A stretch of DNA of 64,000 nt from Christensenellaceae bacterium (GTDB taxonomy: Bacteria; Bacillota; Clostridia; Christensenellales; UMGS416). Every line of letters starts with the position of its first letter. The first letter of the stretch is position 1. Positions 35,526 to 64,000 of this stretch are shown here, piece by piece. Under the pieces are notes generated by a model. It saw only the letters and a program-made list of their open reading frames with translations. It had not been told where the DNA came from and made no database searches. The DNA lies in assembly GCA_963677605.2 (NCBI GenBank), contig CAXXDX010000002.1, positions 266,057 to 330,056 of the forward strand. Direction: 5' to 3'. The translations under genes and the position numbers were made by a program.

Positions 35526-35579
35526 ACGTTTCTCCTAAAAAAAGATGCCCCGGCTAATGCTGGGGCATCCTGTTGTCCA

Positions 35580-36911: not shown

Positions 36912-37133
36912 AACTTCCTCCTAAATAGTTTTGGCAGTTTATTAAAACTACCAATAGAATCTTACCAGTCTGTGCAATCTATTGCCATACACTATTCAAG
37001 ACAACAAATTGTACATTTTTTATAAATTATTAGCGTATAATTAGTAATATGCGTATAAAATAACGTTTCGTGTTTTAAATGAGGCTCAAAATCATATATA
37101 TAAATATTTTATCTTTATGCAAAACACGGTTTC

Positions 37134-37161
37134 TTGACTAATACTTTTTGCTCTATATAAT
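37134..37161 (+). promoter_or_regulatory. putative sigma-A promoter of the two-component system
   Basis: TTGACT (37134-37139), a 16-nt spacer, then TATAAT (37156-37161). It lies about 75 nt upstream of the kinase ATG. Confidence 0.5.
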
Positions 37162-37235
37162 AAGTAATAAGTTTAATTATAGACAGGTGCAGCAAAAGTA
37201 TCGATTTTTAACCATTTTCACAGTTAAAGGTAAGT

Positions 37236-48919: not shown

Positions 48920-50962
48920 CTATTTCTTTTTATAAATCCTCAGCCCTATCGGCTCAAGCACTGTCTCGCCCTTGATTAAAGAGCCGTCAAGAAGACTTTC
49001 GCCTCCATCCTTTATATCCACTTTCACAGGCTTGTTGAGAATGTTTGTGAGGAAAACATATTCATTTTCTCCGTCAGTTCTGCTTATTGCATTAACTCCT
49101 TCAGGAAGCTCATAGTCCACACACGGATTTATGCCCAGCTCATCTGCGACCTTACTGTAGAAGTCGTCAAGAAAATCTGCATTTGTGCGTCCTGCGACGT
49201 AGTATGCTTTACCTCTGCCGTATTCATTTACGGTAACAGCCGGCATCTTGGCATAAAAATCCTTTTCAAATGTTCCCAGAACTTTAGCTGCGCCCTCGGT
49301 ATGGATAAGCTCACACATGTCAAATGCCTCATAGCTTTTGCCGTTATATAAAATTTCATTTCTGTCTTCAGGATAGAGCGCGTCAATTTCTTCACACCAC
49401 ACACCCATCACATCGCGAAGCGGCCCCGGGAATCCTCCCAAAAAGCACAAGTCAGTGTCATTTACATAGCCGCTCATGTAGGTTAAAACGAACGCTCCGC
49501 CTGAATTTACGAATTTCTTAACTTTCTCCGCAAAGCCTTCCCTCAGCATATAGCTCATTGGAGCTACCACAAGTTTGTAGTCGTCAAGCTCTTTTGTCTG
49601 GTCTATTACATCGCATGCTATGCCGCGCTTCCAGAATGACTTGAAGTGGTTTACCACTGTCTCTTCATAGTTGTTTTTATCCTGAAGCATTCCTTCGCTT
49701 TCGCGTATTGCCCATCTGTTTTCCCAGTCAAAAACCACAGCGACCTTGGAATCTACCGGACATCCGACAACATCATCAAGCTTTTTTAATGCCTCGCCCA
49801 CATCGGATACGTCTTTAAACACTCTTGTGTTCTCGCTTCCTTCATGGTCGATAACAGCTCCGTGGAACTTCTCGGATGAACCTCTTGATTTTCTGTACTG
49901 AAAATACTGAATCGTGTCAGCGCCGTGTCCTATAGTGTACATAGAATAATTAAGCAGCCTGTTTGGGCGATAGAGCTTTGCAACAGGACGCCAGTTTGTG
50001 GCCGACGGCGAGCTTTCCATCAGCATAAACGGCTTTTGTCCACAAATGCCGCGCATAACGGCATGCCAGAAACCAAATGAGCATGATGTCTCGATGTCAT
50101 CATCGGTTCCCTTCCACTGAGGATAGCTGTCCCAGCTTGCAACGCTTAAATGTTTGCCCAGCTCGAAGTAGTTCATATCATAAAAATACATAAGGTTTGT
50201 AGTTATCGGTACATCAGGCGTTATCCTGCGAATGTCTTTTACCTCATGTTCGTAAAAATCAATAAAGCGGTCGGTTACAAACCTCTTCCAGTCAATAGCC
50301 AAAGCGTGAACCGACATCTCTCCTCTTGGCGAAGGTGCCTCAATCTGCGACCAGTCTGTAAACGTGTGCGACCAGAACGTGCTCCACCATGCCTCGTTTA
50401 AATTGTCCAGAGTTTTATATTTGTTCTTAAGCCAAGTTCTGAACTCTTCCTGACACAAGTCGCAGAAACATTCTCCGCAGTATTCGTTTGAAATGTGCCA
50501 AACCGAAAGCGCAGGATGGTCTTTATATCTTTCAGCGAGCATTTTGTTAAGCTTGCCGATCTTTTCGCGATATACAGGCGATGTATAGCAGTGGTTATGT
50601 CTTCCTCCGTGAAGGTTTCTGTGACGCATTTCATCCACACGCAAGACTTCCTCGTACTTGTGGCTTAGCCATGCAGGGCGCGCTCCGGAAGGTGTCGCCA
50701 AAACGGCATACATTCCGTTTTCAGCAAGCATATCCATCACTTCATCCATAAACTCAAACTTATAAACGCCTTCTTCCGGCTCAAGCATAGCCCACGAGAA
50801 GATACCTACGGAAAGAGAGTTTATTCCTGCAAGTTTTGCAAGGTGCATATCTTCTTTCCAGATAGTGTCTTTCCATTTAATCCATTGCTCGGGGTTATAG
50901 TCAGCTCCGTGAACCATGTGTGGAAATTTGCTTATAATAGGCTTAAATCTTTTGTTTGACAT
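48920..50962 (-). CDS. GH42 beta-galactosidase
   Basis: 680-aa ORF with HGADYNPEQW, the acid/base region WHISNEY, the Zn-type Cys cluster CGECFCDLC and the nucleophile region FMLMESSPS. Confidence 0.9.
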   Translation of the reverse strand: MSNKRFKPIISKFPHMVHGADYNPEQWIKWKDTIWKEDMHLAKLAGINSLSVGIFSWAMLEPEEGVYKFEFMDEVMDMLAENGMYAVLATPSGARPAWLSHKYEEVLRVDEMRHRNLHGGRHNHCYTSPVYREKIGKLNKMLAERYKDHPALSVWHISNEYCGECFCDLCQEEFRTWLKNKYKTLDNLNEAWWSTFWSHTFTDWSQIEAPSPRGEMSVHALAIDWKRFVTDRFIDFYEHEVKDIRRITPDVPITTNLMYFYDMNYFELGKHLSVASWDSYPQWKGTDDDIETSCSFGFWHAVMRGICGQKPFMLMESSPSATNWRPVAKLYRPNRLLNYSMYTIGHGADTIQYFQYRKSRGSSEKFHGAVIDHEGSENTRVFKDVSDVGEALKKLDDVVGCPVDSKVAVVFDWENRWAIRESEGMLQDKNNYEETVVNHFKSFWKRGIACDVIDQTKELDDYKLVVAPMSYMLREGFAEKVKKFVNSGGAFVLTYMSGYVNDTDLCFLGGFPGPLRDVMGVWCEEIDALYPEDRNEILYNGKSYEAFDMCELIHTEGAAKVLGTFEKDFYAKMPAVTVNEYGRGKAYYVAGRTNADFLDDFYSKVADELGINPCVDYELPEGVNAISRTDGENEYVFLTNILNKPVKVDIKDGGESLLDGSLIKGETVLEPIGLRIYKKK

Positions 50963-51151: not shown

Positions 51152-52339
51152 ATGAAACTACTTTATGAATTAAGCATTCTCCTAAGAAAACCAGTCGTTA
51201 AACTTGTAAACAAACCTACTCCCATAACATTTATAGGCGAAGGTCAGTCAAAAAAGACAGGAACGATTTTAAAAACGGCAGGTTCCAAAAAAACATTTAT
51301 TATAACCGATAGCTTCCTTCGGAAAATCGGGCTTATTGACGGAATAGTAAAAAGCATTAAAGAAAACGAACTAGAATATGAAATATATGACGGAGTGACT
51401 CCCGATCCGTCATTTAAAGTGGTTGAAGATGCCTTAGCAAAATATAAAGGCTGTGATTCGATTGTTGCTATTGGCGGCGGCTCTGTTATAGACACCGCAA
51501 AGGCGGTTGGCGCAGTAGCATCAAACGGGAAAAAGGCGCACAAAATGGTCGGCATGCTTAAAGTCCGGCGGAAACTTCCTCCATTCATCGCTGTTCCAAC
51601 AACAGCAGGCACAGGAAGCGAGACGACTGTTGCCGCAGTTATATCCGACAGCACAACTCACTCCAAAAAGCAGATTCTTGATCCGAAGGTAGTGCCGGCA
51701 GCCGCTATACTGGACCCAACTCTTACAGTCGGGCTTCCTGCGCATATTACTGCACACACAGCATTGGATACACTGACGCATGCTCTTGAAGCATATGTTT
51801 CCGGATATGCCGACTCAAAAACCGACATGCACGCTGAAAGCTCAATAAAGCTCGTCTATGAAAACTTAGATAATGTATTGAAAAATCCTGAAGATATAGC
51901 TGCAAGAGAAGCGCTTTTGACCGCATCTTTTCTAGGCGGAATGGCGTTTACGCAGACCTATGTAGGTTATGTGCATGCATTCGCTCACACTCTTGGCGCA
52001 ATGTTTCATATTCCCCACGGTCTTGCAAACGCAGTTCTCCTGCCCCATGTGATGGAATACTACCTGTCAAAATGCAAAAACGAGTTTTCATATCTCGCCA
52101 AAGTCACCGGTCAGTTTGAAGACAATCTGGGTATAGACAAAAATGCCGAGATCTTTATAAAAAGCCTGTTTGATCTTAATAAAAAGGCAAAAATACCTGA
52201 AAGATTTGATAATTTCCCCGAATCATCTATTAATGAAGTTATAAAAAAGGCTTTCAGGGAATGTCACGGTATATATCCGATTCCAAAGTATTTTACAAAA
52301 AAAGAAGCTGTAAAACTGCTTAAAAAGGTTTGTGTGTAA
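51152..52339 (+). CDS. iron-containing (group III) alcohol dehydrogenase
   Basis: 395-aa ORF with AIGGGSVIDTAKA, PTTAGTGSE and the His-rich metal site YVHAFAHTLG...HG. Confidence 0.88.
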   Translation: MKLLYELSILLRKPVVKLVNKPTPITFIGEGQSKKTGTILKTAGSKKTFIITDSFLRKIGLIDGIVKSIKENELEYEIYDGVTPDPSFKVVEDALAKYKGCDSIVAIGGGSVIDTAKAVGAVASNGKKAHKMVGMLKVRRKLPPFIAVPTTAGTGSETTVAAVISDSTTHSKKQILDPKVVPAAAILDPTLTVGLPAHITAHTALDTLTHALEAYVSGYADSKTDMHAESSIKLVYENLDNVLKNPEDIAAREALLTASFLGGMAFTQTYVGYVHAFAHTLGAMFHIPHGLANAVLLPHVMEYYLSKCKNEFSYLAKVTGQFEDNLGIDKNAEIFIKSLFDLNKKAKIPERFDNFPESSINEVIKKAFRECHGIYPIPKYFTKKEAVKLLKKVCV

Positions 52340-52350
52340 CATTTAAAAAT

Positions 52351-52390
52351 AAAGAAAGAGCCTGCTTTTCAGCAGGCTCTCTCTTTATCC
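52351..52390. terminator. bidirectional terminator between the convergent ADH and GH63-like genes
   Basis: GAGCCTGCT-TTTC-AGCAGGCTC, flanked by an A-rich tract on one side and TCTCTTTAT on the other. Confidence 0.6.
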
Positions 52391-52400
52391 AGTTTTATCC

Positions 52401-53717
52401 CTATGAGATGAATCCGAAGGACAAATCATCACCTTCAAGCTCAAGCTTCATGTTGATAACAAGCAGGTTCCAGTTTAAAAAACCGGGACTCATAACGGGC
52501 TGCCCTGTTTCCGGAGAATAATACTCATGAAGAGTACCCGTTTTTTCATAATCGGAGCCTAATAGACTTAATGTCTTTTCATAAAGCTCCTGTGCCTCTT
52601 TTTTGTATCCGTAGTTCATAAGCGCCCTAAACGTCACATAGTTTACTATAAGCCATATAGGCCCAAGCCAGTTCGACGGATTGTTAGTGGCTTCGAGGTT
52701 ATACATCTTTTCGTCTTTTGCAAGTGCGCGTATACCAAAATCCGACTCAAATGTCTCAGGATTTTGTATATGCAGCTTCATTATATTTTCGCTCTGTTCA
52801 TCAGTTGCGATGCTTGCATACATCGGAATAAATCCCGTCCAAGTCTGTATCTTAATAGGCAGCGTCTTCCAGAACACTCCCAGTCCTTTATGGAACCAGT
52901 CGTATGCTCTCGTTTTTATGTCCACATCAACAGAGTAGAAGAATTTATCCTTTGGATCATAGCATTCTTCCTGCATTGCTTTCGACAAATCTTCTGCCTT
53001 TTCGATATAGTATTCAGCTCGCTGACTGTCGCCCAACGCGGTAAGAATTTTTGCCATTGACTTAAACTCCATCACAAGGAAAGAATTAAGGAATACATTT
53101 GCAGTCGAAAATCTCGGCCTTCCGAACGACGCAGGATCGTTGTCCATTCCGATCATAACGTCATCCGCCCAGACATACAGCTTGCAGTTGTCGTTAAAAT
53201 AGTATCTGTCGTAACACTCAAAGTATTTTTCAAGATTGCCCACATACTCTTTAAGCCAGTCAAAAGATTCCTTAAGCCCTGAAACAAGACACGCCTGCTG
53301 GCACAAAAAAGGCTTGTGCATGTTTAATATTTCGCCTTCTTTATGCTTTGTAATAAGATACGGCTCGGTATGTTCATCTTCATTTATATACTGATTTTTA
53401 TACGTAACCATCATCGGGATATAGCCGTCTTCCATCTGAAACTCAAAGAAGTTTAACACATTTCCCTGCGCTCCTTCAATAAGACGCTGTTTAAACTCTT
53501 CATCGCCAGTTATCTGCTGATAAGCGGTCAGCGAATACACTGTCCAGAATGAATCCCAATCCCAGAGGTTGCCCTCATAAATCGAACCCGGATCTATAAA
53601 AGGATGCTTAAATTTCACATTCGGCGACTTAAAAACATTGTCCACGCTGTCGGAGACAAATTTTAATATGCCGTCAAAATATTTTTCTCTTTTTCCCATC
53701 GAGAGTTTTCCTATCAC
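52401..53717 (-). CDS. six-hairpin (alpha/alpha)6 glycoside hydrolase, GH63/MGH1/trehalase-like
   Basis: 438-aa ORF with NLWDWDSFW and later WLGPIWLIVNY blocks reminiscent of clan GH-G enzymes. This is a family-level guess only. Confidence 0.5.
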   Translation of the reverse strand: MIGKLSMGKREKYFDGILKFVSDSVDNVFKSPNVKFKHPFIDPGSIYEGNLWDWDSFWTVYSLTAYQQITGDEEFKQRLIEGAQGNVLNFFEFQMEDGYIPMMVTYKNQYINEDEHTEPYLITKHKEGEILNMHKPFLCQQACLVSGLKESFDWLKEYVGNLEKYFECYDRYYFNDNCKLYVWADDVMIGMDNDPASFGRPRFSTANVFLNSFLVMEFKSMAKILTALGDSQRAEYYIEKAEDLSKAMQEECYDPKDKFFYSVDVDIKTRAYDWFHKGLGVFWKTLPIKIQTWTGFIPMYASIATDEQSENIMKLHIQNPETFESDFGIRALAKDEKMYNLEATNNPSNWLGPIWLIVNYVTFRALMNYGYKKEAQELYEKTLSLLGSDYEKTGTLHEYYSPETGQPVMSPGFLNWNLLVINMKLELEGDDLSFGFIS

Positions 53718-54055
53718 TTATATTCCGGCCTGCAGGGAGAGAAGCATTCAATTATTTCTGAATCCTCCAAAACTTCCGATCCGTGCACTTCATTTGATTT
53801 AAAGAAGTATCCGTCGCCCGGTACAACAATAATTTCATCACCGTTTTCAGCCAAGAACTTCACTTTTCCGCTTATAACATAACCGTTTTGCACCGCCACA
53901 TGGCTGTGAAGCGGAATGCTTGAGCCCTTCTCCAGCGTGAAATGGCAAAGCATATTGTCATCGTCATAGCATAATGTTCTGCGGTAAATCCCGTCAAACA
54001 TTTTTACGGCCGGCTGTTCATCCTTAGGTTTATACTGTGTATTTTTATCCATCAT
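53714..54055 (-). CDS. cupin domain protein
   Basis: 113-aa ORF with cupin motif 1 (GSSIPLHSH) and motif 2 (GDGYFFKSNEVHG). Confidence 0.8.
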   Translation of the reverse strand: MMDKNTQYKPKDEQPAVKMFDGIYRRTLCYDDDNMLCHFTLEKGSSIPLHSHVAVQNGYVISGKVKFLAENGDEIIVVPGDGYFFKSNEVHGSEVLEDSEIIECFSPCRPEYK

Positions 54056-54065
54056 AATCTCCTTG

Positions 54066-55163
54066 TTAAGGTTTAAGTACTACTTTAATTGATTCTTTTC
54101 CTTCACCGGCAAGAGTCATCGCTTCCATAAAATCGCTCAGCGGATATTCATGCGTTACTATCTTATCCACTTTTATGATGCCTTTTGAAAGCATATCTAT
54201 AGCCACGGGATAGCCTTCCTGTCCGCTTATATGCGCACCGTAGATTGTCAGCTCTTTTCTGTCGCCGATTATGCTCCAGTCAACCGAAGTTTCCGCCGAA
54301 AACACCGAAAACTCAACAAAAGTTCCGTGTTTTCTTACCATCTTAAGTCCCTGAATAACTCCCGAAGGATGTCCTGAATTGTGAATATAAACATCACAGC
54401 CGTAACCATTTGTCAAGTCCTGAACCTTTTGTACAGCGTCCTCTTTTCCGGGATTTATAACAATGTCTGCGCCCAGTTCTTTGGCAAGCTCCAAACGGTT
54501 GTCTTTCATGTCAAGCGCAATTAAGAGCTTTGGATTCTTAAGTTTTGCAAGCTGCAGTTTGCAAAGACCGATAGGTCCCATTCCTGCAATTACAACAACA
54601 TCATTAAACTTGATTTTTGCTCGCTCCACCGTATGCACAGAACACGACAAAGGCTCTATCATTGCCGCATGTTCCGCAGGTATATGCTTTGGCACTTTGT
54701 GTATTACGGAACGTGAATTATAGCGCATATATTCTGCCATGCCGCCGTCAGCCACTTCTTTCTGATGCCCGTATATATTGTGGACTTCGCACATCCAGTA
54801 ATCGCCGCCTTTGCAGTATCTGCACTCTCCGCATGGTACTATCTGCTCTGCTATAGCGCGGTCGCCAAGCTCAAGACCGTATTTTTTTGCTGCGTTGTCG
54901 CCGAGTGCCACAACAGTTCCAATAAACTCATGTCCCGGAACACACGGTGCGTCATTCCAAGGCGGAAGTACTCCGCCGCCCCAGAACATTGCAGCTCCGG
55001 CGTAAGATTTTACATCACCTGCACATATACCGCATGCTTCAATCTTTATAAGCACATCATCTTCAGTAATCTTAGGAACATCCTTTTGCTCATACCTATA
55101 GTCCTTAGGTCCGTAGCAAATAACAGCATTCATCTTCTCGGGAATCTTCTCCAAAGTCTTCAT
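54066..55163 (-). CDS. zinc-dependent medium-chain alcohol/polyol dehydrogenase (sorbitol or threonine dehydrogenase-like)
   Basis: 365-aa ORF with CGICAGDV, GHEFIG, the structural-zinc cluster CGECRYCKGGDYWMC and the Rossmann motif AGMGPIG. Confidence 0.88.
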   Translation of the reverse strand: MKTLEKIPEKMNAVICYGPKDYRYEQKDVPKITEDDVLIKIEACGICAGDVKSYAGAAMFWGGGVLPPWNDAPCVPGHEFIGTVVALGDNAAKKYGLELGDRAIAEQIVPCGECRYCKGGDYWMCEVHNIYGHQKEVADGGMAEYMRYNSRSVIHKVPKHIPAEHAAMIEPLSCSVHTVERAKIKFNDVVVIAGMGPIGLCKLQLAKLKNPKLLIALDMKDNRLELAKELGADIVINPGKEDAVQKVQDLTNGYGCDVYIHNSGHPSGVIQGLKMVRKHGTFVEFSVFSAETSVDWSIIGDRKELTIYGAHISGQEGYPVAIDMLSKGIIKVDKIVTHEYPLSDFMEAMTLAGEGKESIKVVLKP

Positions 55164-55189
55164 GTATTGCCTCCTAATATATTGATTTA

Positions 55190-56131
55190 TTATTTATTCC
55201 AAATAGCCTTCTTAGCTGCTTCAACAATATCCTTTGTGTCCATACCATATGCTTCAATAAGCTCCTGAGCTGAACCTGACTGAGGCCATACATCCTGCAG
55301 TCCTATACGCTCAACCGGCACCGGACACACCTTTGCAGACAGCTCACAAACAGCGCTTCCCAAGCCTCCGTTTACATTATGGTCTTCAACGGTAACTGCC
55401 GCGCCTGATTTTTTAAGCGCCGCACCTATAGTTTTCTCATCCAGAGGTTTTATAGTGTGCACTTCAACGACCTGCGCGCTTATGCCTTCTTCTTTAAGCT
55501 GTTTTGCAGCCTCCATTGTCTGGTTTATAAGGCTTCCGCATGCAAACAGCGCAACATCCTCGCCATCGCCATATACTTTTCTTGCTTTGCCTATCTCAAA
55601 AGGCATGTCTTCTTCATATACAACAGGATCGCGTCCGCTTCCTATTCGTATATATACAGGACCTTCCCACTCGGCAGCCGCGACAACAGCTTTTTGAACC
55701 TGATCCGCATCGGCAGGTACTAGTATTGTCATGCCGGGGATTGCGCGAAGTATTGCGATGTCCTCAAAGAACTGATGTGTAACACCTTCTTTTTCACCGC
55801 CTGCTATGCCGCCGTTTGCACCGACGAGCTTAACGTTTAAGTGAGGATATCCGACAAATGTGCGCACCTGCTCACACGCGCGCATTGTGATAAATCCTGC
55901 GTATGTCGCCATGAATGGCACCATTCCCGCCGAAGCCAAACCTGCCGCGACATCCACCGCGTTTTGTTCCGCGATGCCGACATCCACTGTGCGCTCCGGG
56001 TATTTCTCCACAAAAGGAACAGCCTTTATAACCAAAAGAGAGTCCGCCATAACAAGCGCAATGTCATCGCGCTTTTCGGCTATCCCCATAAGTCCATCTG
56101 TAAATCCAATTCTCGTGCTTTTAGTTTTCAT
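55190..56131 (-). CDS. transketolase, C-terminal (pyrimidine-binding) subunit
   Basis: 313-aa ORF with GIAEQNAVDVAAGLA and a C-terminal domain. It overlaps the N-terminal subunit gene by 4 nt. Confidence 0.9.
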   Translation of the reverse strand: MKTKSTRIGFTDGLMGIAEKRDDIALVMADSLLVIKAVPFVEKYPERTVDVGIAEQNAVDVAAGLASAGMVPFMATYAGFITMRACEQVRTFVGYPHLNVKLVGANGGIAGGEKEGVTHQFFEDIAILRAIPGMTILVPADADQVQKAVVAAAEWEGPVYIRIGSGRDPVVYEEDMPFEIGKARKVYGDGEDVALFACGSLINQTMEAAKQLKEEGISAQVVEVHTIKPLDEKTIGAALKKSGAAVTVEDHNVNGGLGSAVCELSAKVCPVPVERIGLQDVWPQSGSAQELIEAYGMDTKDIVEAAKKAIWNK

Positions 56132-56955
56132 AGTGATGCCTCCAATTCGCTGTCCAGCGCTTGGAGCGCTTCTTTAAGCTGCTCGGCATCGGGTGTGCCC
56201 TTGTGCCATGCGTTGTTGTGCTCCATATAAGGAACACCTTTACCTTTTACGGTGTGTGCGATTATAACTGATGGTACATCCTTTTCATTCTGCGCAGTTG
56301 TAATCGCACTGTGAATCGCCTCAAGGTCATGCCCATCTATCTCCTGCGTGTGCCAGCCGAACGACTGGAATCGGCCTGCGATATTTACCATGTTGCTGAC
56401 ATCCGATACAGTGCCTCCGCTCTGCATACCGTTGTTATCAACAAAAGCTATAAGTTTGTCGGCCTTGTATTTTGCTGCAGCATTTACTGCCTCCCACAAA
56501 ACACCTTCACCAAGCTCTCCGTCTCCGGTTATAACATAAACATAATTGTCTATTCCCTGCATACGCGCGGCAAGCGTCATTCCAAGACCGATTGAAAGCC
56601 CATTGCCCAATGAGCCGGATGTCATGTCAACGCCCGGAGTCTTAATGTCCGGATGCCCCTGCAGACGTGAGTTTATCTTTCTTAATGTCGGAAATTCATC
56701 CTCCGACAAGAATCCTTTTCTGGTAAGCGTCGCATACAAAACAGGACATGCATGTCCCTTGGACAGGATGAACCTGTCGCGCTCTTTCCACTTGGGATTT
56801 TGGGGATCAATCCTCATAAAATCGTTGTATATTACTGCCATGATGTCAGCGATTGATAACGCAGGGCCGGGATGTCCCTCGCCGCCCTGATGTATCATAG
56901 TTACCACATCTTTTCTTATCTGGCATGCAAATTTCTTTGTTTCCGCGATGTTCAT
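56128..56955 (-). CDS. transketolase, N-terminal (ThDP-binding) subunit
   Basis: 275-aa ORF with GEGHPGPALS, SKGHACP and GDGELGEGVLWEA. Confidence 0.9.
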   Translation of the reverse strand: MNIAETKKFACQIRKDVVTMIHQGGEGHPGPALSIADIMAVIYNDFMRIDPQNPKWKERDRFILSKGHACPVLYATLTRKGFLSEDEFPTLRKINSRLQGHPDIKTPGVDMTSGSLGNGLSIGLGMTLAARMQGIDNYVYVITGDGELGEGVLWEAVNAAAKYKADKLIAFVDNNGMQSGGTVSDVSNMVNIAGRFQSFGWHTQEIDGHDLEAIHSAITTAQNEKDVPSVIIAHTVKGKGVPYMEHNNAWHKGTPDAEQLKEALQALDSELEASL

Positions 56956-57614
56956 TTCATTTCCTCCAGCATTGCCTTAACCTGCTTTACGCAAAGTGGC
57001 GGGCTTGCAAGAACAGGCTTGCCCGATGCCTTCATAAGGCCTTCCTGCATGCGTCCCATTGAGCCCTGAGCCAGAACAAAGCAGTCCGCTTCTGATGCCA
57101 GTCTTTCAGCAGTTTCTAATATCGCTCTGTCGTGTCCTTCAGGATCTCCCGATACAAGCGCGTCATAAGCACCTTTTGCAAGGCCGCTAACAATCTTGAT
57201 TTCTTTGCCCGCTTTTTTTGCTTTTTCTTCAATCATGCGCATTGTTGGGTTAAGTGTTGTGGGTATTGTTGCCATAACAGCAACAGAAGTATAGTTGTTT
57301 ACAACCTCATCGCCCATTGCGTCATCGATTTTAACTATAGGAACATCAATCATAGGCTGTGCAATGTCGACAATCTCGCGTACCGACGAGCATGTGTTTA
57401 TAATTAAATCCGCTCCCATGTCCTGCGCTATCATGAAATACTGAGTTAGCCTTTTAATTACTGCAGGTGTAAGTTTGCCCGCTCGTATCACGTCGCGTAT
57501 CAGCGTATCGTCAATTATATTGTTATATTCTATGTCCTCGATGCCTTCTTTAAACACCTTCTGCAAAGGGCCTGAAAGACCTTGACCTGTGTATACTGCG
57601 ATTATCTTTTTCAT
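56952..57614 (-). CDS. Asp/Glu/hydantoin racemase family protein
   Basis: 220-aa ORF with the family-typical N-terminus IIAVYTGQG and an INTCSS block. Family-level call only. Confidence 0.6.
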   Translation of the reverse strand: MKKIIAVYTGQGLSGPLQKVFKEGIEDIEYNNIIDDTLIRDVIRAGKLTPAVIKRLTQYFMIAQDMGADLIINTCSSVREIVDIAQPMIDVPIVKIDDAMGDEVVNNYTSVAVMATIPTTLNPTMRMIEEKAKKAGKEIKIVSGLAKGAYDALVSGDPEGHDRAILETAERLASEADCFVLAQGSMGRMQEGLMKASGKPVLASPPLCVKQVKAMLEEMK

Positions 57615-57629
57615 AATTTCTCCCTCGTT

Positions 57630-59066
57630 TTAGTCCGCTGCTATAAATCTTACTGCCTGATATGGTTTTCCCGGAAGCGGAATCTCGCATGCTCCCTCAA
57701 ATTCACCTTCAAGCTCAGTTATTGTCATCTCCCATGTGTCTATTACTTCACATTTATATTTTCTTCCCTCAGGAAGTATGCATGTTTTCATAATAGGCTG
57801 TCTGTTGCCGACATATACAAGGAAATAATCTTCCTTGTAACCCACTGCAAAACGCATGCCTTCATTTAAAGTTGTAGGCACAAGATATCCGGGTGCTTCG
57901 TTTATTATTTTTACAAGGAATGCTATCCGCTCGGGGCTTTGCCCGTGAAGCTTTCCGCCTTTTGCCCACCAGAGGATATCATCTGGGTGCATGTATGTTT
58001 CGCCGTGGCCGGCGTAACCTCCGCGCGCATATGCTTCCCACATCCTGTTTGACATCTCCTCTGCTGTGATGTTTCCCCAGTTGTTTGTGATGTTTCCTTC
58101 ATAACAGCATTCGTCGATTACGACAGGCTTTTTATATGTGTCAAGCCATTCGGTAGTTCTCTGAATGTCGCTGTGCTGTATGCTGCAGTGAGTCACCCAC
58201 GGCTTGCCGTGGTCATAAAAACCTCTGCAGTTGTGAATGGAGCGAAGATGATTATACGGATCATACTGCTGGATTATCTTAAAGAACCTGTCCCAATCCG
58301 CTAGTGTTTTAGCTCCCATAAGGTCATATTCGTTTGCAAACGACCACCACAGATTACGGTATGCGGAAATCCTTGCCGCCAAGTATTTAAGATATCTGTC
58401 GTCTGCTTCCGCCGGCATTTTTGAAAATCCCCACCTGTCATACTCGTGGAAAAGGATTAAATCCGCTTCGATGCCCATATCCATAAGCGCTACGATACAT
58501 TCTTCCAAATGCTCAAAGTACTGTGGATTAAACCGCTCAAAATCCCAGCCGTCCTTAAGGCTTCCTTCAAACGGATAAAACCTCGGTTCATTGGCATTGA
58601 ATGTGTAATGCTTCGGAAAAACGCACATGCGCATTTTGTTAAAAGGCGCGGTTTTAAGCGTCTCAAGCGTTTGTTTTTCAAGCTCCTCGCTCTGATGATT
58701 CCACACATATGATGTAGTTCCAATCGGGTGATGAGGCGTTCCGTCCTCATATGCGAAGTGGTATCTGTCTATAACGCGAACAGGCCCGTGGTTTCCTTCG
58801 GATGGCGCGGTGCAAAGAAATTCGCCGCACTCACCGTCAAAGCCATGAGCATTGGTTGAAACACTGTAACTCCATGTTCCTTCCACATCAGGCATAAAAC
58901 GTATTTTATATTCACCGTTTCCGTTATAAAATCCGTTTACGCTGACTTTCCTTCCGCCGATTTTAAATTCTGCACAAACTTCCGCTTCTGTAAAGGGATT
59001 GACTTCAAGCTCGCCTTTATATACAAGCTCGAAGACACCCCATTTTTCAACATTCTTTATGCTCAT
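57630..59066 (-). CDS. DUF5060 + DUF4038 (GH140-like, clan GH-A TIM barrel) glycoside hydrolase, paralog B
   Basis: 478-aa ORF. It has an N-terminal beta-sandwich-like region (KWGVFELVY...YKIRFMPDVEGTWSY), then WWSFANEYDLM (NE acid/base-like) and VVIDECCYEGN (nucleophile-like Glu). Confidence 0.55.
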   Translation of the reverse strand: MSIKNVEKWGVFELVYKGELEVNPFTEAEVCAEFKIGGRKVSVNGFYNGNGEYKIRFMPDVEGTWSYSVSTNAHGFDGECGEFLCTAPSEGNHGPVRVIDRYHFAYEDGTPHHPIGTTSYVWNHQSEELEKQTLETLKTAPFNKMRMCVFPKHYTFNANEPRFYPFEGSLKDGWDFERFNPQYFEHLEECIVALMDMGIEADLILFHEYDRWGFSKMPAEADDRYLKYLAARISAYRNLWWSFANEYDLMGAKTLADWDRFFKIIQQYDPYNHLRSIHNCRGFYDHGKPWVTHCSIQHSDIQRTTEWLDTYKKPVVIDECCYEGNITNNWGNITAEEMSNRMWEAYARGGYAGHGETYMHPDDILWWAKGGKLHGQSPERIAFLVKIINEAPGYLVPTTLNEGMRFAVGYKEDYFLVYVGNRQPIMKTCILPEGRKYKCEVIDTWEMTITELEGEFEGACEIPLPGKPYQAVRFIAAD

Positions 59067-59084
59067 AAAAGCTCCTAAGCTTTA

Positions 59085-60842
59085 TTAGTCGAGTGCAACT
59101 GCACCATCCACGTGAAGCTCGCCCTCTTTCATCGGTGCCTTGTCCATCACTTTGCGTCCGCTGTAGAGAGGATAATATGTTCCTTTTGGAGTGATTCCGA
59201 CAACTTCGTCGCCAACCCACTTTGTGCCGTAGTTTAACCCTGCAGCAGTTTCCACAGTCTCACGCTCAATCTGCTGGAATGTAACTGTGATTTTCTCACC
59301 GGGCATTGCTCCTTTAAGTAGTATAAAGCAGCCTTTTACCCACGGAAGATCGCGTCCCGAGAACTTGTCTCCGTTTCCTCTTGTTACTGTAACACCACCG
59401 AAAGGTGTCCATTCAGGTATGCGCACAAGAAGCTCAGGTATCTCGCGGTTTACGTGGAGTTCCACTTTTCCTTCATGCGGAAGATAGCTCAATACGTCCA
59501 AGTCTTCCGTTGCTCGGTTGAGCAGCATATTAACGCTTACACGTCCGTTATCCTGTTTTGTAACGATATTCTGCCAGCCTGTGTATAGTCCGCGTGTTCC
59601 GGAAGCTACGCAGCATGTCTGAACATCCATGATATGTCCTCTGCCGTGTACACCACTGTAAACAAAGTCATTGGGCGCTGCATAGCCTGCGAATGTTCCG
59701 CGAAGGCGCTCAGCCACTTTGTAGTATGTTTTCTCGCCGGGTATATCCATCTTCTTGTCTTCGCGCTGCTTAATCCAGCTGGTATCCAGTATCTGAGCTT
59801 CTGTCAGATGGTTGCGAAGGAAGCGTTCTGCAACGCCCCAATATTCGGTATATCCCTGTTTTGCAAGCTTGATGGCGATAGAGATAGCATCAACCAGTGT
59901 GCATGTTTCGTGCTCATATTCCTGATCTTCAAGGTCTCCCGGTGTCCAGCCGAAGCTTGTGCACTTTGTAAGTCCCCAGTCAAAGCTCTTTTTAACAAAA
60001 GCGAATATGGAAGAATCCCCTGTCGCTTCAGCAAAACGCGCAAGAGAGTTAAGAGTTCCCATGCGTGTGTGGAAGTGTCCGTTTCTGTATCCGAGAGCGT
60101 CGTTGAAGCTTCCGTCGGAATTAAACACACCGCTTCTAAACATTATGTTTGATGCGAAGTTTTCGGCAAGCTCATATGCGTCGCGGTTTCCCGTCGCTTC
60201 ATAATAGCGAGTAAGCGGCATAACCTGACGTCCCCACATTGCAGCAGGATCGTAGGCCAGACGAGTGTGCACTGCGTCAAATGACGGCCATCCGCTGTCA
60301 GTATATTCTGAGCCCGGATAATACCATGAAATGCGTTCTTTCCTTGCGATCTTTTTAAGCGCTGCAACATGTCTGTCCGCGTAGCCTTTAATCTTTTCAT
60401 CCTGAGTGTCCAAAAACCATGTGGTAAGCCCGAGTATTACGGAGCGCTGATCAATCATGCTGGCGGATTCCCTGAATTTCGCCTGATGCTCAATTATTGT
60501 TTCTTCATCAAATGTATTGCGTCTGAAGCTTAATCCGTTCGGTCTGAAAGTTTTGAGCAGATTTTCGCGGTAATGCTGTTCGATATCTTCTCCATACTTG
60601 CTTCCAGTCATCCTGCGCGCAAGCAAAATGCAGTCCACCAAACGTCCGTGGCTTGAGCCGTAGTCCCAGTTTCCGTGGCTCATCCATGCCGGATCAGACT
60701 GAAAGAATCCGCTGAAAAACGGTATAAACTCATAGTCCTCATCCGCAACGTTAATCATCGCATTGAGCGCAATTTCCGCGCGCTCTTCCAGATTAAGCGT
60801 ATCCGGCATCTTAAGTGTTCTTGCTTTAGTCATCTCGTTCAC
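59085..60842 (-). CDS. conserved hypothetical protein, 585 aa; possibly an (alpha/alpha)-barrel carbohydrate-active enzyme
   Basis: Long clean ORF with an RBS, cytoplasmic (no signal peptide). I cannot place it in a named family from sequence alone. Confidence 0.6.
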   Translation of the reverse strand: MNEMTKARTLKMPDTLNLEERAEIALNAMINVADEDYEFIPFFSGFFQSDPAWMSHGNWDYGSSHGRLVDCILLARRMTGSKYGEDIEQHYRENLLKTFRPNGLSFRRNTFDEETIIEHQAKFRESASMIDQRSVILGLTTWFLDTQDEKIKGYADRHVAALKKIARKERISWYYPGSEYTDSGWPSFDAVHTRLAYDPAAMWGRQVMPLTRYYEATGNRDAYELAENFASNIMFRSGVFNSDGSFNDALGYRNGHFHTRMGTLNSLARFAEATGDSSIFAFVKKSFDWGLTKCTSFGWTPGDLEDQEYEHETCTLVDAISIAIKLAKQGYTEYWGVAERFLRNHLTEAQILDTSWIKQREDKKMDIPGEKTYYKVAERLRGTFAGYAAPNDFVYSGVHGRGHIMDVQTCCVASGTRGLYTGWQNIVTKQDNGRVSVNMLLNRATEDLDVLSYLPHEGKVELHVNREIPELLVRIPEWTPFGGVTVTRGNGDKFSGRDLPWVKGCFILLKGAMPGEKITVTFQQIERETVETAAGLNYGTKWVGDEVVGITPKGTYYPLYSGRKVMDKAPMKEGELHVDGAVALD

Positions 60843-60872
60843 TCCTTATTCTCGTAAAAAATTAATTCCAAC

Positions 60873-62387
60873 TTATTGTGCGGGTGTAAGCCTTATGGCG
60901 AGATACTTCTTATCCGGAAGCTTGATTGTTTTTTCCTCGCTGTCCGCATATCCATACTGCCCTTTTTCACCCACCGTGAAGATTTCATCGACTTCGTCTA
61001 TAGTCATATTCCATGTGTCGAGTATCTCTGCCTTATACTTTGTGCCCGGCTCCATTACGACATCTTTTGCAGGTATGAAAAATTTCCATTCATCAGGCAT
61101 TTCGTTTCCGAAATATATAAGGAAATGCTTTTCATCCTTTTTGGCCATTCCGGCAAGCCACCACTTGTCAACAGCAGTCCAGCCGTGTCCCGAGCCTTCC
61201 TCGATTATTTTCTTTAAAAAGGCTATGCGCTCTCCGCTTTCGCCCTTAAGGTTACCGCCGACAGCAGTCCAGACAAGCTCACCGTTTTCATCCGGCAGGT
61301 CGATTACTTCGCCGTGCCCGACATAAGCCCCTGCTATCATTCCGTTCCAGAACCTTCTTGTCATCTCCTGCGCGGAAAGGTTTCCCCACCTTGCATCAAA
61401 GTTTCCTTCATAGCATACTTCATCATAGATAACAGGCTTATGATAGGCTTTAACCAGAAGCACTGCTCTGCCAGCTTCATCCACAGCCATGCCGTCCTGA
61501 ACTGTCGCGTGAGTTATCCACGGTTTCCAGCTTTCATAAAGCCTCATATAGTTGTGTATTGAAAGAAGGTGATTGTATGGATCGGCATCTTCCACCACCT
61601 GACACAAGTCATGCCATTGTTCAGTTGTTTTGGTTAAAACAAGGTCATATTCATTAGCAAGCGACCACCACACATTTCTGTATGCAGCAAATCTGCTCAC
61701 GCAGTACTTCAAAAACATGACGTCCGCATCCTGAGGTTTTTGAGAATATCCCCAGTCCTTCGCATATGGGTGCAAAAGTATAAGGTCGACCTCGACTCCT
61801 ATATCCATAAGCCTTTGCAGGCGGTCTTCAATCATCTGGAAGTACTTCGGATCAAAACGCGAAAAATCCCAGTCTTTCTTTGACTCGCCAACATAAGGAT
61901 AATGCCTCATGTTTTCATCGCTGAACTCACTGTGGTGCGGAGTTACGCCTGTTCTCATTTTATTAAACGGACTGTTTTTAAGGCTTTCAATCGTCTGATA
62001 GGCAAGCTTGTCTTTCTGGTGCACCCATCCGTATGAAGTTGATCCAAACGGATAATACGGCGTACCGTCAGCATAGGCAAAGTGAAACTGCTCGGCAACT
62101 TCCACTGGTCCGTGATTGTCGCCTGTGGCTTCGGTGCACATAAACGTGCCTTCTTTGCCATCGAGCTCTTCTTTGTTGCTTGTTGTAGTATACTTCCACA
62201 CGCCTAGAGCTTTTGGCATAAAACGTATACGGAAAGTATCGTCCCCGTCATAGAATCCGCTTACTTTAACCTCGGTTGCTTCATTTTTAAAAACCGCTGT
62301 AAAAGATATATCCACAAAAGGATTAGCTGTTTCTGCGCATTTAAACTCCGCTTCAAACATTCCCCATTTTTCTATTGTAATACTCAC
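60873..62387 (-). CDS. DUF5060 + DUF4038 (GH140-like) glycoside hydrolase, paralog A
   Basis: 504-aa ORF colinear with 57630-59066: KWGMFEAEF...FRIRFMPKALGVWKY, WWSLANEYDLV and VIYDEVCYEGN. Confidence 0.55.
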   Translation of the reverse strand: MSITIEKWGMFEAEFKCAETANPFVDISFTAVFKNEATEVKVSGFYDGDDTFRIRFMPKALGVWKYTTTSNKEELDGKEGTFMCTEATGDNHGPVEVAEQFHFAYADGTPYYPFGSTSYGWVHQKDKLAYQTIESLKNSPFNKMRTGVTPHHSEFSDENMRHYPYVGESKKDWDFSRFDPKYFQMIEDRLQRLMDIGVEVDLILLHPYAKDWGYSQKPQDADVMFLKYCVSRFAAYRNVWWSLANEYDLVLTKTTEQWHDLCQVVEDADPYNHLLSIHNYMRLYESWKPWITHATVQDGMAVDEAGRAVLLVKAYHKPVIYDEVCYEGNFDARWGNLSAQEMTRRFWNGMIAGAYVGHGEVIDLPDENGELVWTAVGGNLKGESGERIAFLKKIIEEGSGHGWTAVDKWWLAGMAKKDEKHFLIYFGNEMPDEWKFFIPAKDVVMEPGTKYKAEILDTWNMTIDEVDEIFTVGEKGQYGYADSEEKTIKLPDKKYLAIRLTPAQ

Positions 62388-62419
62388 AAATAATATCCCT
62401 TCACTGTTTAACTGATTGT

Positions 62420-63847
62420 TTATCGTCCGAGAAGATAGCTGTCCACTTTCTCCTGAGCGTCATCATCATAAAAATCAATGTCCAGACCGTCGATGTATTT
62501 GAGCGCTTCCGCAACTACCGGAAGAACATCTCCGTGAACACCGACACAATGGTGAACATATGGGCCTTCAACCAGCTTCTTTTCAAGTTTAAGCCAATCT
62601 TTAACTTCAATCCATACATAGGTTCCCCAAATATATGGACCCTCTATACCTTTTGCAGCTCCAGCCAAAAGGCTGTATTTTCCGCCGTCTCCGTCAAAGC
62701 GCAGTATAGTCATTTCGCCGCCTTTGATTTCAGAAAGAACTGCACCGGGCTTTTCACCAGGCAACGCAAACGGACTTCCAAGCTTGGCTTTTGTTCCTGC
62801 TTTACAAAGCGAAATAGGATAAGGTCCGCAGTGCTGCAAAAGCTCGCCGTTGTCGTTTGACGGATGGCGTACTGTCCAGTCAGCAAAGAATGTAGCGGTC
62901 GTGCCCATTGCTGCCGCCTGTGCGATAACCGATGTTATAGCGCCGTGAATGTCTGTTTCGCATGCCACAGGTATTCCTTCGTCTGTAAGCAGCGCGTTTC
63001 CTGTGCAAGGCATCAGGCCAAGGTCTGCCTGCAGCGCGTCCCAGCACTGTATAGCTGCGGCCTGACATTTGTTTTTATCCACAAAATATCTTACAGCAGT
63101 TTTAAGGGCGGCAACTTTGAGTACGCCTTCCTCGTCAACGCACACTTCCATGTTTTTGTTTATATGCTCAATCGTTTCTTTTACTTTATCATCAGGCTTT
63201 TCGATAAGCTGTTTTGCCTTGCGCACTACATCGCTCAGCGGAATCGGGCTTATCTGAATTCCGAACTTTTCAAGAAGCTCGCCTTCGTTATACATCATTG
63301 TCCAGAAATCCGAAGGTCTTGTAGAAATCTGAAGCACTCTTAGGTTTCTGAACACCTTCACAACATTTGCGGCTGCAATGAAGTTTTTGATGCCTCTTTC
63401 AAAGCTTGCATCCTGCAGAGTGTCGTTAGGAATATAAGTAAACGGCACTTTGAAGCGGCGAAGCACTTTACCTGTTGCAAACAGTCCACACTGCGAGTCG
63501 CGAAGCCTTGAGCCATCCGGAAGCGGATCTTCATCCCTCGGTCCCCATATTGCGACCGGAAGTCCCATTTTCTTTGAAAGCTTGCCTATAATGTCTTCCG
63601 TTCCGAAGTTACAGTGAGGAAAAAACAAAGCATCAACACCGTTTTCCTGCATTTTTGCCATTATTGCATCCAGATCGTCCTCTGAATAAAATAAACCTTC
63701 GTCATTTATGTCTTCTATATCCACATAGTCAATGTTAAGTTCTTTTAAGCGGTCGTAAGTCAGGTCTTTAAATTTTAAAGCATCCTCTTTAGAAAAGATA
63801 AATCTTCTTGTTGGCACAACGCCAAGTTTTACTGTGTATTTTTCCAT
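62420..63847 (-). CDS. L-fucose/L-arabinose isomerase family protein
   Basis: About 475 aa. It has GVVPTRR near the N-terminus and the ACETDIHGAITS metal-site-like block. I place the start at the ATG at 63845-63847, after AAGGAG. The track uses a TTG two codons upstream. Confidence 0.7.
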   Translation of the reverse strand: MEKYTVKLGVVPTRRFIFSKEDALKFKDLTYDRLKELNIDYVDIEDINDEGLFYSEDDLDAIMAKMQENGVDALFFPHCNFGTEDIIGKLSKKMGLPVAIWGPRDEDPLPDGSRLRDSQCGLFATGKVLRRFKVPFTYIPNDTLQDASFERGIKNFIAAANVVKVFRNLRVLQISTRPSDFWTMMYNEGELLEKFGIQISPIPLSDVVRKAKQLIEKPDDKVKETIEHINKNMEVCVDEEGVLKVAALKTAVRYFVDKNKCQAAAIQCWDALQADLGLMPCTGNALLTDEGIPVACETDIHGAITSVIAQAAAMGTTATFFADWTVRHPSNDNGELLQHCGPYPISLCKAGTKAKLGSPFALPGEKPGAVLSEIKGGEMTILRFDGDGGKYSLLAGAAKGIEGPYIWGTYVWIEVKDWLKLEKKLVEGPYVHHCVGVHGDVLPVVAEALKYIDGLDIDFYDDDAQEKVDSYLLGR

Positions 63848-63849
63848 AA

Positions 63850-64000
63850 TCAAATCTCCTTCACACTGTTTCTTTTAATCAAATCAGTTCCGATTAATAT
63901 TTTGATATTCTCATTCGTTTTTGAATTTATAATGTCTGAAAGCCTTCTTACAGCAACTGCGCCCATACCTTCATTGCTTACTTTAACTGTTGTAAGCTGT
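63850..64000 (-). CDS. LacI family transcriptional regulator, C-terminal 49 codons; the gene continues beyond the right edge
   Basis: My translation is QLTTVKVSNEGMGAVAVRRLSDIINSKTNENIKILIGTDLIKRNSVKEI-stop, the typical LacI C-terminal pattern. The stop is at 63850-63852, just upstream of the isomerase start. Confidence 0.65.
   Translation of the reverse strand, partial: QLTTVKVSNEGMGAVAVRRLSDIINSKTNENIKILIGTDLIKRNSVKEI

Follow-up and report, generated by a model that had tools for sequence, protein, structure and literature searches.

The transketolase route of D-apiose catabolism comprises ApsI, AplK and AptA/AptB (Carter et al. 2018, as cited in PMC13753588 and PMC13001218), and the apiose cluster of Escherichia coli is without ApsI, which is replaced there by two oxidoreductases (PMC13001218). 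Side chain B of rhamnogalacturonan II (RG-II) has galactose (Gal), aceric acid (AceA), rhamnose (Rha) and apiose (Api) linked as Gal-beta-AceA-alpha1,3-Rha-alpha1,3-Api; as is likewise established, BT1003 of Bacteroides thetaiotaomicron removes aceric acid, and the same bacterium secretes the AceA-Rha-Api trisaccharide together with free apiose (bioRxiv 10.64898/2026.03.13.711244). No aceric-acid catabolic route was described in the literature that we searched. Here we analyzed a stretch of 64,000 nucleotides from a Christensenellaceae bacterium (GenBank assembly GCA_963677605.2, contig CAXXDX010000002.1; hereafter the window, G000:C2:266057-330056, with position 1 as its first letter), one end of which holds the distal two-thirds of an operon with two split transketolases, TK1 and TK2. 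We propose that this operon dismantles an imported RG-II fragment and directs apiose and aceric acid each through a transketolase of its own, a combined model for which we see about as much in favor as against.

The locus is a real operon of 14 genes, in the order TK2-N, TK2-C, kinase, LacI, isomerase, GH140-like a, GH127L (a GH127-like glycosidase), GH140-like b, Race (a racemase-fold protein), TK1-N, TK1-C, Zn-ADH (a Zn-dependent dehydrogenase), cupin and GH63L (a GH63-like glycosidase), where N and C denote transketolase subunits. It consists of two modules, A (isomerase, kinase and TK2) and B (GH127L, Race, TK1, Zn-ADH and cupin); module B lies within the window, and the TK2 and kinase genes of module A lie beyond its edge, which cuts the unit. 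Our listing of open reading frames (ORFs) gave ten complete genes on the minus strand (62420-63853, 60873-62387, 59085-60842, 57630-59066, 56952-57614, 56128-56955, 55190-56131, 54066-55163, 53714-54055 and 52401-53717), with intergenic gaps from LacI to GH63L of -4, 32, 30, 18, 15, -4, -4, 26, 10 and -4 nt. A preliminary description of this DNA had counted eleven genes at 52401-63853; the eleventh is the LacI-family regulator gene (63850-64863, C2:329906-330919; PF00356, PF13377 and PF00532), which is mostly outside the window and enters it only with its last ~50 codons (63850-64000, minus strand). This gene adjoins the isomerase gene, as had been said, but it does not head the array: its upstream end overlaps the kinase gene and its downstream end the isomerase gene, each by a few bases, which makes it internal to the operon. 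Past position 64000, on the same strand and going upstream, LacI is followed by an FGGY kinase, TK2-C, TK2-N, a 202-nt gap and a gene for an Fe-dependent alcohol dehydrogenase (Fe-ADH). The earlier remark that no transporter or kinase is present thus holds inside the stretch, but the absence of a kinase is an artefact of the window edge: the region past 64000 contains the kinase and TK2 directly upstream of LacI, and an ATP-binding cassette (ABC) transport system is encoded elsewhere in the genome.

The boundaries of the operon are marked by a TAGACA-17-TATAAT promoter-like site directly upstream of TK2-N, in a gap that also has a hairpin with a T-run, and by a perfect hairpin at 52357-52380 (10-bp stem with 6 GC pairs) at the operon end, shared with a convergent Fe-ADH gene. 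The latter hairpin is the sole strong terminator-like site; other terminator-like matches were not enriched (14 found versus 11.4 expected in shuffled sequence). No signal peptide, membrane helix, or N-terminal or internal hydrophobic segment was found in the operon proteins (maximum Kyte-Doolittle 19-residue mean below 1.8), and all operon products are cytoplasmic. ORF listing and checks of gaps, hairpins and hydrophobicity hence agree with the gene array, co-orientation, short gaps, terminal hairpin and lack of signal peptides reported before. The GC content of the operon (45.6%, for window 52401-64000 plus C2:330057-334176) compares with a genome mean of 39.0% (standard deviation 2.5), and none of 997 16-kb segments reached it; a close Race copy is present in just one of three genomes of the same genus. 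The high GC content and the patchy occurrence of Race suggest that the operon was horizontally acquired. In a search of sequencing runs, the stretch was found in the probable source run only, with no RNA run listed.

To place the components of module A, we used as references the apiose genes of E. coli strain SE15 (ECSF_RS02700/02710/02715) as defined in PMC13001218. TK2 (C2:332406-334176) resembles AptA/AptB in both subunits: TK2-N and AptA both have GHTG, TGALGHG and WHH and group together in a small tree (99/99 support), and TK2-C falls with E. coli AptB into a class defined by 'SYG[AP]-L..[ST]HH'. The FGGY kinase and E. coli AplK both have GDS and GTG[ST]S (GTGSS in the locus kinase). The other FGGY kinase of the genome (C7:405073-406542) keeps GDQ and GTGCF, which we take to be the glycerol-pocket motifs of E. 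coli GlpK (Gln246/Phe270), and the locus kinase is, judging from these motifs, probably AplK-like and not a true GlpK. The third component is an isomerase of the FucI/AraA superfamily (62420-63853, minus strand), a candidate for the conversion of D-apiose to apulose. Its assignment as FucI-like stands at the superfamily level and not at that of the family model (Fucose_iso_C 17.6 bits, cut-off 29.3); the best NCBIfam model is SftI (E 1e-40, at 139.8 bits versus a cut-off of 700), and homologs are named as L-fucose/L-arabinose isomerase family members. In Paenibacillaceae the isomerase travels with TK2 and the AplK-like kinase. Taken together, apiose is the rather probable substrate of module A.

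TK1 is a genuine split transketolase, as had been described (Transketolase_N 213.9, Transket_pyr 96.2 and Transketolase_C 111.8 bits), and the motifs for thiamine diphosphate (ThDP) binding are intact in both TK1 and TK2. Its N-subunit (56128-56955, minus strand), the ThDP-binding half, keeps the GDG...N motif and the catalytic His residues, as the other catalytic motifs of TK1 are kept, and has WHK where the canonical sequence is WHG. We regarded as canonical those residues found in the aligned split transketolase 6YAJ (C. hydrogenoformans) and human transketolase 4KXU; His461, Asp469 and Ser385 are presumably the corresponding substrate-binding residues in E. coli TktA numbering. A canonical class of C-subunits, including a genome copy at C7:785 kb, 6YAJ and the human enzyme, shows 'H...G[EP]-DG..THQ'. 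The canonical substrate residues are lost in both locus enzymes, TK2-C having Ser, Leu and HH, and TK1-C (55190-56131, minus strand) having Asn at the His461 position, 'GEKEG' in place of the Asp-containing 'GE-DG', and 'DSLLVIK' in place of the Ser-rich loop. All ~22 Race-linked C-subunits that we examined form one such class, with Asn for His461, a basic residue inserted to give 'G[EN][RK]EG', and an altered Ser loop. Compared with AptA/AptB, TK1 is 32-38% identical, matches none of the signatures and forms its own clade. From its sequence we judge that TK1 is a separate transketolase subfamily tied to Race and not an apulose-type enzyme. The earlier idea of an apiose-type transketolase at this locus therefore survives for TK2 and fails for the in-window TK1, which is without the AptB signature. 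With four split transketolases encoded in the genome, neither of the two is its only one, and the earlier caveat that the in-window enzyme might be the general housekeeping transketolase is not borne out.

The 585-aa protein encoded at 59085-60842 (minus strand), which had been left unplaced, is a distant GH127-like cysteine glycosidase that forms a conserved core with Race. Its family is tightly conserved, with 55-87% identity from Christensenellaceae-type metagenome-assembled genomes to Paenibacillus and Cohnella (Bacillota). A Foldseek search with the AlphaFold (AF2) model (pLDDT 92) returned GH127 and GH146 structures at all of ranks 1-21 (E 1.5e-16 to 1.1e-12, template modeling (TM) score 0.52-0.59), among them BT1003 (5MQO; E 1.1e-12), and the model has the (alpha/alpha)6 plus beta-sandwich fold. 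E312, C314, C410 and C411 are invariant in 64 GH127L sequences. The Cys-Cys pair aligns with 'WCCVGSG' of the GH146 structure 5OPJ, and the Glu-x-Cys motif was mapped by pattern alone; together we take them to be the GH127 zinc site and nucleophile. GH127L is a candidate aceric-acid-releasing enzyme.

Race (56952-57614, minus strand) has the fold of the Asp/Glu racemase superfamily (TM 0.7-0.8; PF01177, 56.9 bits). Its C75, in 'NTCSSV', is invariant, and an equally invariant Gln183, in 'AQGSM', aligns to the residue that serves as second Cys in allantoin and hydantoin racemases. Race is thus not a two-thiol racemase, and its sequence makes a single-base isomerase or a decarboxylase more likely.

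The genomic context of GH127L was profiled in 80 genome loci around its homologs, where Race adjoins the GH127L gene in ~59 loci and GH140-like genes occur in 5. Other neighbors include GH78, GH106, GH2, GH42, GH95 and GH43 genes, ABC transporters and two-component AraC regulators. What follows Race differs between lineages. Paenibacillaceae have the order GH127L, Race, RuBisCO-like protein (RLP) and DUF1537 kinase, the RLP being closest to OiaX (477 bits) and the kinase to OiaK (480 bits; both cut-offs 700); Lachnospiraceae-type loci have a DUF1537 kinase, Race and BKACE; and Race is followed by a split transketolase in this operon, the syntenic L002, L015 and L017. No RLP (PF00016) and no BKACE (PF05853) was found in the whole genome analyzed here (93.5% complete), and its single DUF1537 gene is far off (C7:758 kb). 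In this genome, the transketolase appears to take the place of RLP and BKACE.

A Race-centered scan of metagenomes gave 51 contigs of at least 5 kb, in which the labeled partners of Race were a transketolase (n = 15), RLP plus kinase (n = 12), BKACE (n = 7), a kinase alone (n = 4) or a mixture (n = 1), with none in the remaining 12. The usual cassette order is Race, TK-N, TK-C, a transaldolase-like gene and a cupin; among the 14 long Race-transketolase contigs, ten have the cupin and nine the transaldolase-like gene. The combination of two transketolases is seen again in three loci (L101, L109 and L112), which have a TK2-type pair in addition. Genes neighboring the Race-transketolase cassettes encode PL10, GH28, GH106, GH78, GH95 and GH140-like enzymes, BNR sialidase-like proteins, a BT_1020-like protein (of a family tied to RG-II), an aminotransferase, and a DctP binding protein of a tripartite ATP-independent periplasmic (TRAP) transporter and carriers of the major facilitator superfamily (MFS). 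The presence of TRAP DctP and MFS carriers is a hint at an acid sugar.

Uptake would rely on genes elsewhere in the genome. An operon at C6:1503000-1520000 (L098) encodes a LacI regulator, a CUT1 binding protein, two permeases, GH78, a GH63L paralog (73% identical to the window copy) and another LacI, and its proteins share 55-73% identity with those of the block of binding protein, two permeases, GH78 and GH63L that directly precedes GH127L in L020-L026. The C6 ABC system (~1.514-1.517 Mb) and its GH78 are, from this correspondence, most likely the importer and rhamnosidase of the system. The window itself contains a CUT1 importer (binding protein and two permeases, 33817-36911) beside a histidine kinase and an AraC-type response regulator (33817-39813 in all). 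Its layout is that of Paenibacillus GH127L loci, but the proteins share only 25-38% identity with them and envelope-modification genes separate it from the operon, and we did not assign it to the system.

From the observed gene content, operon structure, gene linkage, active-site signatures and the absence of RLP and BKACE, we infer the following substrates and reaction steps. The substrate is probably of RG-II type; the enzymes around the conserved core (beta-galactosidases, GH127-type enzymes, rhamnosidases and apiosidase-like enzymes) would match the linkages of side chain B. An RG-II side chain B oligosaccharide, for which AceA-Rha-Api is a candidate, would be imported by the C6 ABC system and dismantled inside the cell, each branched sugar having its own transketolase. 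The earlier notion that an unusual oligosaccharide, branched-chain and pectin-derived, is processed inside the cell is retained. In module A, the isomerase would convert apiose to apulose, the AplK-like kinase would form apulose 4-phosphate, and TK2 would cleave this to dihydroxyacetone phosphate, with the C2 unit passed to glyceraldehyde 3-phosphate. In module B, GH127L would release L-aceric acid (3-C-carboxy-5-deoxy-L-xylose), which Race would convert to its 2-keto form, a beta-keto acid and the methyl homolog of 3-oxo-isoapionate. All three back ends found with Race would break a C-C bond next to the ketone of this form (an OiaX-like decarboxylase after an OiaK-like kinase, BKACE, or a transketolase). 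That aceric acid is the substrate of module B is, on balance, an even call. More tentatively, TK1 would act at the quaternary carbon by breaking the C2-C3 bond, much as AptAB cleaves apulose 4-phosphate, and the Arg/Lys inserted in TK1 could bind the carboxylate. The cleavage would leave a C4 2-oxo acid (3-hydroxy-2-oxobutanoate) for onward processing by Zn-ADH and the cupin; we consider this specific chemistry rather doubtful. The TK1 route would need no phosphorylation, and the gene content of module B, without a kinase, fits it.

Several points weigh against this model. The activities of the enzymes in both modules are predictions, and for GH63L, Zn-ADH, the cupin and the GH140-like pair the assigned roles are no more than guesses. 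To our knowledge, no aceric-acid catabolic enzyme has been described, so there is nothing with which to compare module B, and we know of no biochemical precedent for a carboxylated quaternary-carbon transketolase donor. GH127L scores below the Pfam PF07944 gathering threshold (15.7 versus 24.9 bits), its family profile reaches 5OPJ at E 0.004 only, and it is 12-14% identical to any solved GH127 or GH146 structure, BT1003 being no nearer than the beta-L-arabinofuranosidases. Most metagenome Race-transketolase cassettes have no BLAST-detectable GH127-like gene within 10 kb, a search whose labels are blind to canonical GH127 genes in these loci (no reference sequence in the label set). For module A, the transketolase tree has few taxa and places AptA on a long branch; the locus kinase is only 37% identical to AplK, no nearer than to the canonical GlpK of the genome (39%), and its score lies just above the GlpK equivalog cut-off (595.7 versus 590.35); and the isomerase presumably belongs to a different family from ApsI. 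Finally, the operon itself has neither a rhamnosidase nor a transporter.

Several alternatives were weighed. If GH127L were an ordinary beta-L-arabinofuranosidase, the target would be oligosaccharides of arabinogalactan-protein, gum-arabic or extensin type (with Rha, Gal and arabinofuranose), and Race and TK1 would serve another metabolite. Characterized GH127 and GH146 enzymes other than BT1003 are indeed beta-L-arabinofuranosidases and top the fold search, and the accompanying GH42, GH2, GH43 and GH78 also fit arabinogalactans; we nevertheless think this unlikely, as L-arabinose requires no Race, RLP, DUF1537 kinase, BKACE or dedicated transketolase, TRAP or MFS carriers adjoin Race-transketolase cassettes, and the neighbors include a BT_1020-like protein, PL10, GH28, GH106 and GH95, which point to RG-II. 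We judge it quite unlikely that a bacterial or algal glycan, and not RG-II, supplies some different rare sugar, carboxylated or branched, on which the enzymes would act in the same sequence of glycosidase, one-cysteine isomerase and C-C cleavage next to a ketone. The chemistry of the three Race partners demands merely a beta-keto-acid or ketose intermediate, and many Race cassettes are without recognizable pectin genes (12 of the 51 contigs have no labeled partner). The recurrent neighbors, however, are pectin and RG-II families, aceric acid (BT1003) is the sole known non-arabinose substrate of the GH127 fold, and the co-resident apiose-type module points to the one glycan known to have both sugars. 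The chance that the entire locus is dedicated to D-apiose or an apioside, with both transketolases, Race, Zn-ADH and cupin in its service and the GH140-like pair freeing apiose from apiogalacturonan or RG-II, is slim. TK1 carries no AptA or AptB signature and stands in its own clade, Race is linked to GH127-type and not to GH140-like genes (the 5 of 80 loci above), the conserved set of Race, RLP and kinase has no dehydrogenase, lactonase or ApnO to oxidize apiose to an acid, and the OiaK- and OiaX-like proteins are far under their equivalog cut-offs. These observations have to be set against the two paralogs that pass the PF13204 'Apiosidase' model, the AptAB-like TK2 and AplK-like kinase in the same operon, a possible part for Zn-ADH because E. 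coli swaps ApsI for two oxidoreductases, and the fact that Race partners elsewhere are paralogs of apionate-pathway enzymes. Use of a compatible solute (a glycosyl-glycerol or glycosyl-glycerate) through an MGH1/GH63-like hydrolase and a glycerol kinase was rejected as very improbable. The PF22422 'mannosylglycerate hydrolase-like' match of GH63L (119.8 bits) and the GlpK models passed by the kinase are what favor it, but the GH142-type domain of BT_1020-like proteins likewise falls under PF22422, GH63L orthologs lie between GH78 and GH127-like genes, and the kinase has GDS/GTGSS in place of GDQ and GTGCF, presumably the glycerol pocket, a canonical GlpK being encoded elsewhere in the genome.

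The isomerase and the dehydrogenases raise one further alternative. The sulfo-transketolase pathway of sulfoquinovose uses a split transketolase and no kinase, and the locus could be read as such a pathway, its isomerase being SftI-like and an Fe-ADH acting as sulfoacetaldehyde reductase alongside the split transketolase. SftI is the best NCBIfam model of the isomerase and the Fe-ADHs match the sulfoacetaldehyde reductase model SarD, but the scores are far under the cut-offs (SarD 210-221 versus 700, and SftI as given above), the operon has a kinase and no GH31-type sulfoquinovosidase gene or exporter, and TK2 and the kinase show the AptAB and AplK signatures. We rejected this pathway, whose probability we regard as close to negligible, and prefer the proposal of an RG-II fragment dismantled through two transketolases.

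The remaining enzymes of the operon were all recognized before in outline. The GH140-like a (60873-62387) and b (57630-59066) proteins, both on the minus strand, are paralogs with 43% identity and a DUF5060-PF13204-DUF5605 architecture, and as previously proposed both pass PF13204 (67.2 and 58.5 bits, cut-off 26.5). GH140-like a has a 4N0R-type TIM barrel with invariant N245-E246 and E323/E327; the match to 4N0R, an uncharacterized structure, reaches 399 bits. Searches with phmmer and with a 10-sequence profile of the paralogs recovered 4N0R and no BT1012 entry of the PDB at E <= 1, and we know of no activity for this DUF5060/DUF5605-type subfamily. A third GH140-like paralog (38-46% identity) occurs at C7:1078000-1092000 (L097) with a binding protein, GH43, an esterase, a third cupin and a 665-aa Cache-like protein, adjoined by an AraC-type response regulator. 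Zn-ADH (54066-55163, minus strand) is a Zn-dependent medium-chain dehydrogenase that scores highest with the models for threonine 3-dehydrogenase and scyllo-inosose 3-dehydrogenase without reaching either cut-off; close copies (73-75% identity) are present in two other Race loci. The cupin (53714-54055, minus strand) is a small metal-binding protein with conserved H-x-H-x3-Q ... H-G (Cupin_2). GH63L (52401-53717, minus strand) is an (alpha/alpha)6 glycosidase of the GH63/MGH1-like superfamily (PF22422 and GH63, 119.8 and 76.8 bits), weakly related to the GH142-type domain of the BT_1020-like protein (E 4e-8), and its orthologs directly precede GH127L in other Bacillota. Zn-ADH, Race, cupin and GH63L all score above the cut-offs of the families named for them earlier. 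A second cupin, 58% identical to that of the locus, directly precedes a split transketolase with fully canonical substrate residues at C7:780000-790000 (L096), where a PF01261 xylose-isomerase-like TIM-barrel gene comes before the pair and two GHL6 proteins and an esterase flank it; this looks like another transketolase-based sugar locus.

Some Race-transketolase cassettes of the metagenomes carry further conserved genes. In one locus, the Race-linked transketolase and Race are separated by a class I/II aminotransferase gene (L176:8689-9942), and an MFS carrier follows Race; an aminotransferase would make sense there if the transketolase yields a 2-oxo acid as proposed, since transamination of 3-hydroxy-2-oxobutanoate would produce threonine. 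Fusions of an FGE-sulfatase-like domain with a BNR sialidase-like propeller (L109:6216-8492 and L112:6167-8470) are encoded just upstream of Race and a second type of FucI-like isomerase, which has 28-29% identity to that of the window. Large conserved proteins also occur beside these cassettes, one with DUF6298 (L176:3202-6336) and others from ~635-650-aa ORFs after TK2 in L101, L109 and L112 with faint alpha/alpha-barrel matches; the ~650-aa proteins were considered as GH127-like and rejected (hhalign probability 1.6%).

Several features flank the operon. The Fe-ADH convergent with it (51152-52339, plus strand), whose best model is lactaldehyde reductase at a score below the cut-off, may reduce an aldehyde end product and is a candidate member. 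Next to it is a GH42 beta-galactosidase (48920-50962, minus strand), homologs of which are found in 11 of the 80 GH127L loci (37-43% identity, and 85% in the syntenic L002). Upstream of the other Fe-ADH gene there is a perfect 19-bp palindrome, TTAACAATATAATTGTTAA (C2:335712-335730), with similar AACAAT half-sites nearby. Its 17-bp core (TAACAAT-N3-ATTGTTA) has one other exact match in the genome (C3:41261) and four copies with one mismatch, with no link to a regulon, and it is a putative operator. Between that Fe-ADH gene and a chemoreceptor gene lies a 93-aa ORF (C2:335786-336067, L001:5987-6268, minus strand) whose product has three hydrophobic helices and, in WPLSIIKSIKSKSTKGKS, a stretch resembling a PQ loop. 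It was a candidate for a SemiSWEET-type carrier, an identity that we set aside given that it has no Pfam match; it is absent from the syntenic L002.

If the model holds, it would offer a concrete catabolic hypothesis for aceric acid, a rare sugar of RG-II, in which RLP, BKACE and transketolase are three interchangeable back ends. Transketolase chemistry would extend to a carboxylated quaternary donor, and one-cysteine racemase-fold proteins would gain a function. The signatures defined here separate apulose-type transketolases, Race-linked transketolases and AplK-type kinases from the housekeeping enzymes, all of these now carrying the plain annotation 'transketolase' or 'glycerol kinase'. The locus further suggests that the bacterium is cross-fed by RG-II fragments that Bacteroides releases. 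A wider reading, which we consider speculative and rather doubtful, is that the transketolase-based path would be a third route for L-aceric acid, unphosphorylated, widespread in anaerobes and joined here with an apiose route using a FucI-type isomerase, by which a non-pectinolytic Bacillota bacterium could live on the AceA-Rha-Api secreted by primary RG-II degraders such as Bacteroides.

Compared with the described transketolase route of D-apiose, module A shares the order of aldose to ketose conversion, a GlpK-like FGGY kinase and a dedicated split transketolase predicted to cleave at a tertiary carbon, and the substitutions diagnostic of AptA/AptB recur in TK2 and those of AplK in the kinase. 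Sequence identity with the E. coli counterparts is no higher than 36-47%. Module A differs in its isomerase, which is of FucI/AraA type, and in its place in a single operon beside glycosidases and another transketolase. TK1 would follow the same principle with a different branched sugar, but it has neither the AptAB signature nor a kinase of its own. Among characterized glycosidases, BT1003 (5MQO), HypBA1 and BT0349 resemble GH127L in overall fold (Foldseek E 1e-12 to 1e-16) and in the Glu-x-Cys and Cys-Cys pattern, and the GH127/GH146 systems resemble the locus in having rhamnosidases, galactosidases and apiosidase-like genes as neighbors, whereas GH127L, at 12-14% identity, with a sub-threshold Pfam score and no signal peptide, represents a separate family. 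The GH140-like pair likewise shares with BT1012, the founding GH140 beta-D-apiosidase, and with 4N0R the PF13204 domain and the invariant Asn-Glu and Glu of clan GH-A retaining enzymes, but has the DUF5060/DUF5605 architecture of 4N0R.

The oxidative D-apionate pathways (ApnO, OiaK and OiaX/OiaC) are approached most closely in Paenibacillaceae, where the Race-GH127L pair is followed by the closest OiaK and OiaX paralogs, and the proposed keto-aceric acid would be a homolog of their 3-oxo-isoapionate. The conserved set has, however, no ApnO-type oxidoisomerase and no dehydrogenase/lactonase pair, and in this genome a transketolase stands where RLP or BKACE would be. The RLP and BKACE variants of the cassette are alike in that a one-cysteine racemase-fold gene adjoins a GH127-type gene inside pectin loci; in the operon described here, by contrast, the partner of Race is a distinct split transketolase with a cupin and Zn-ADH, in an operon shared with an apiose-type module.

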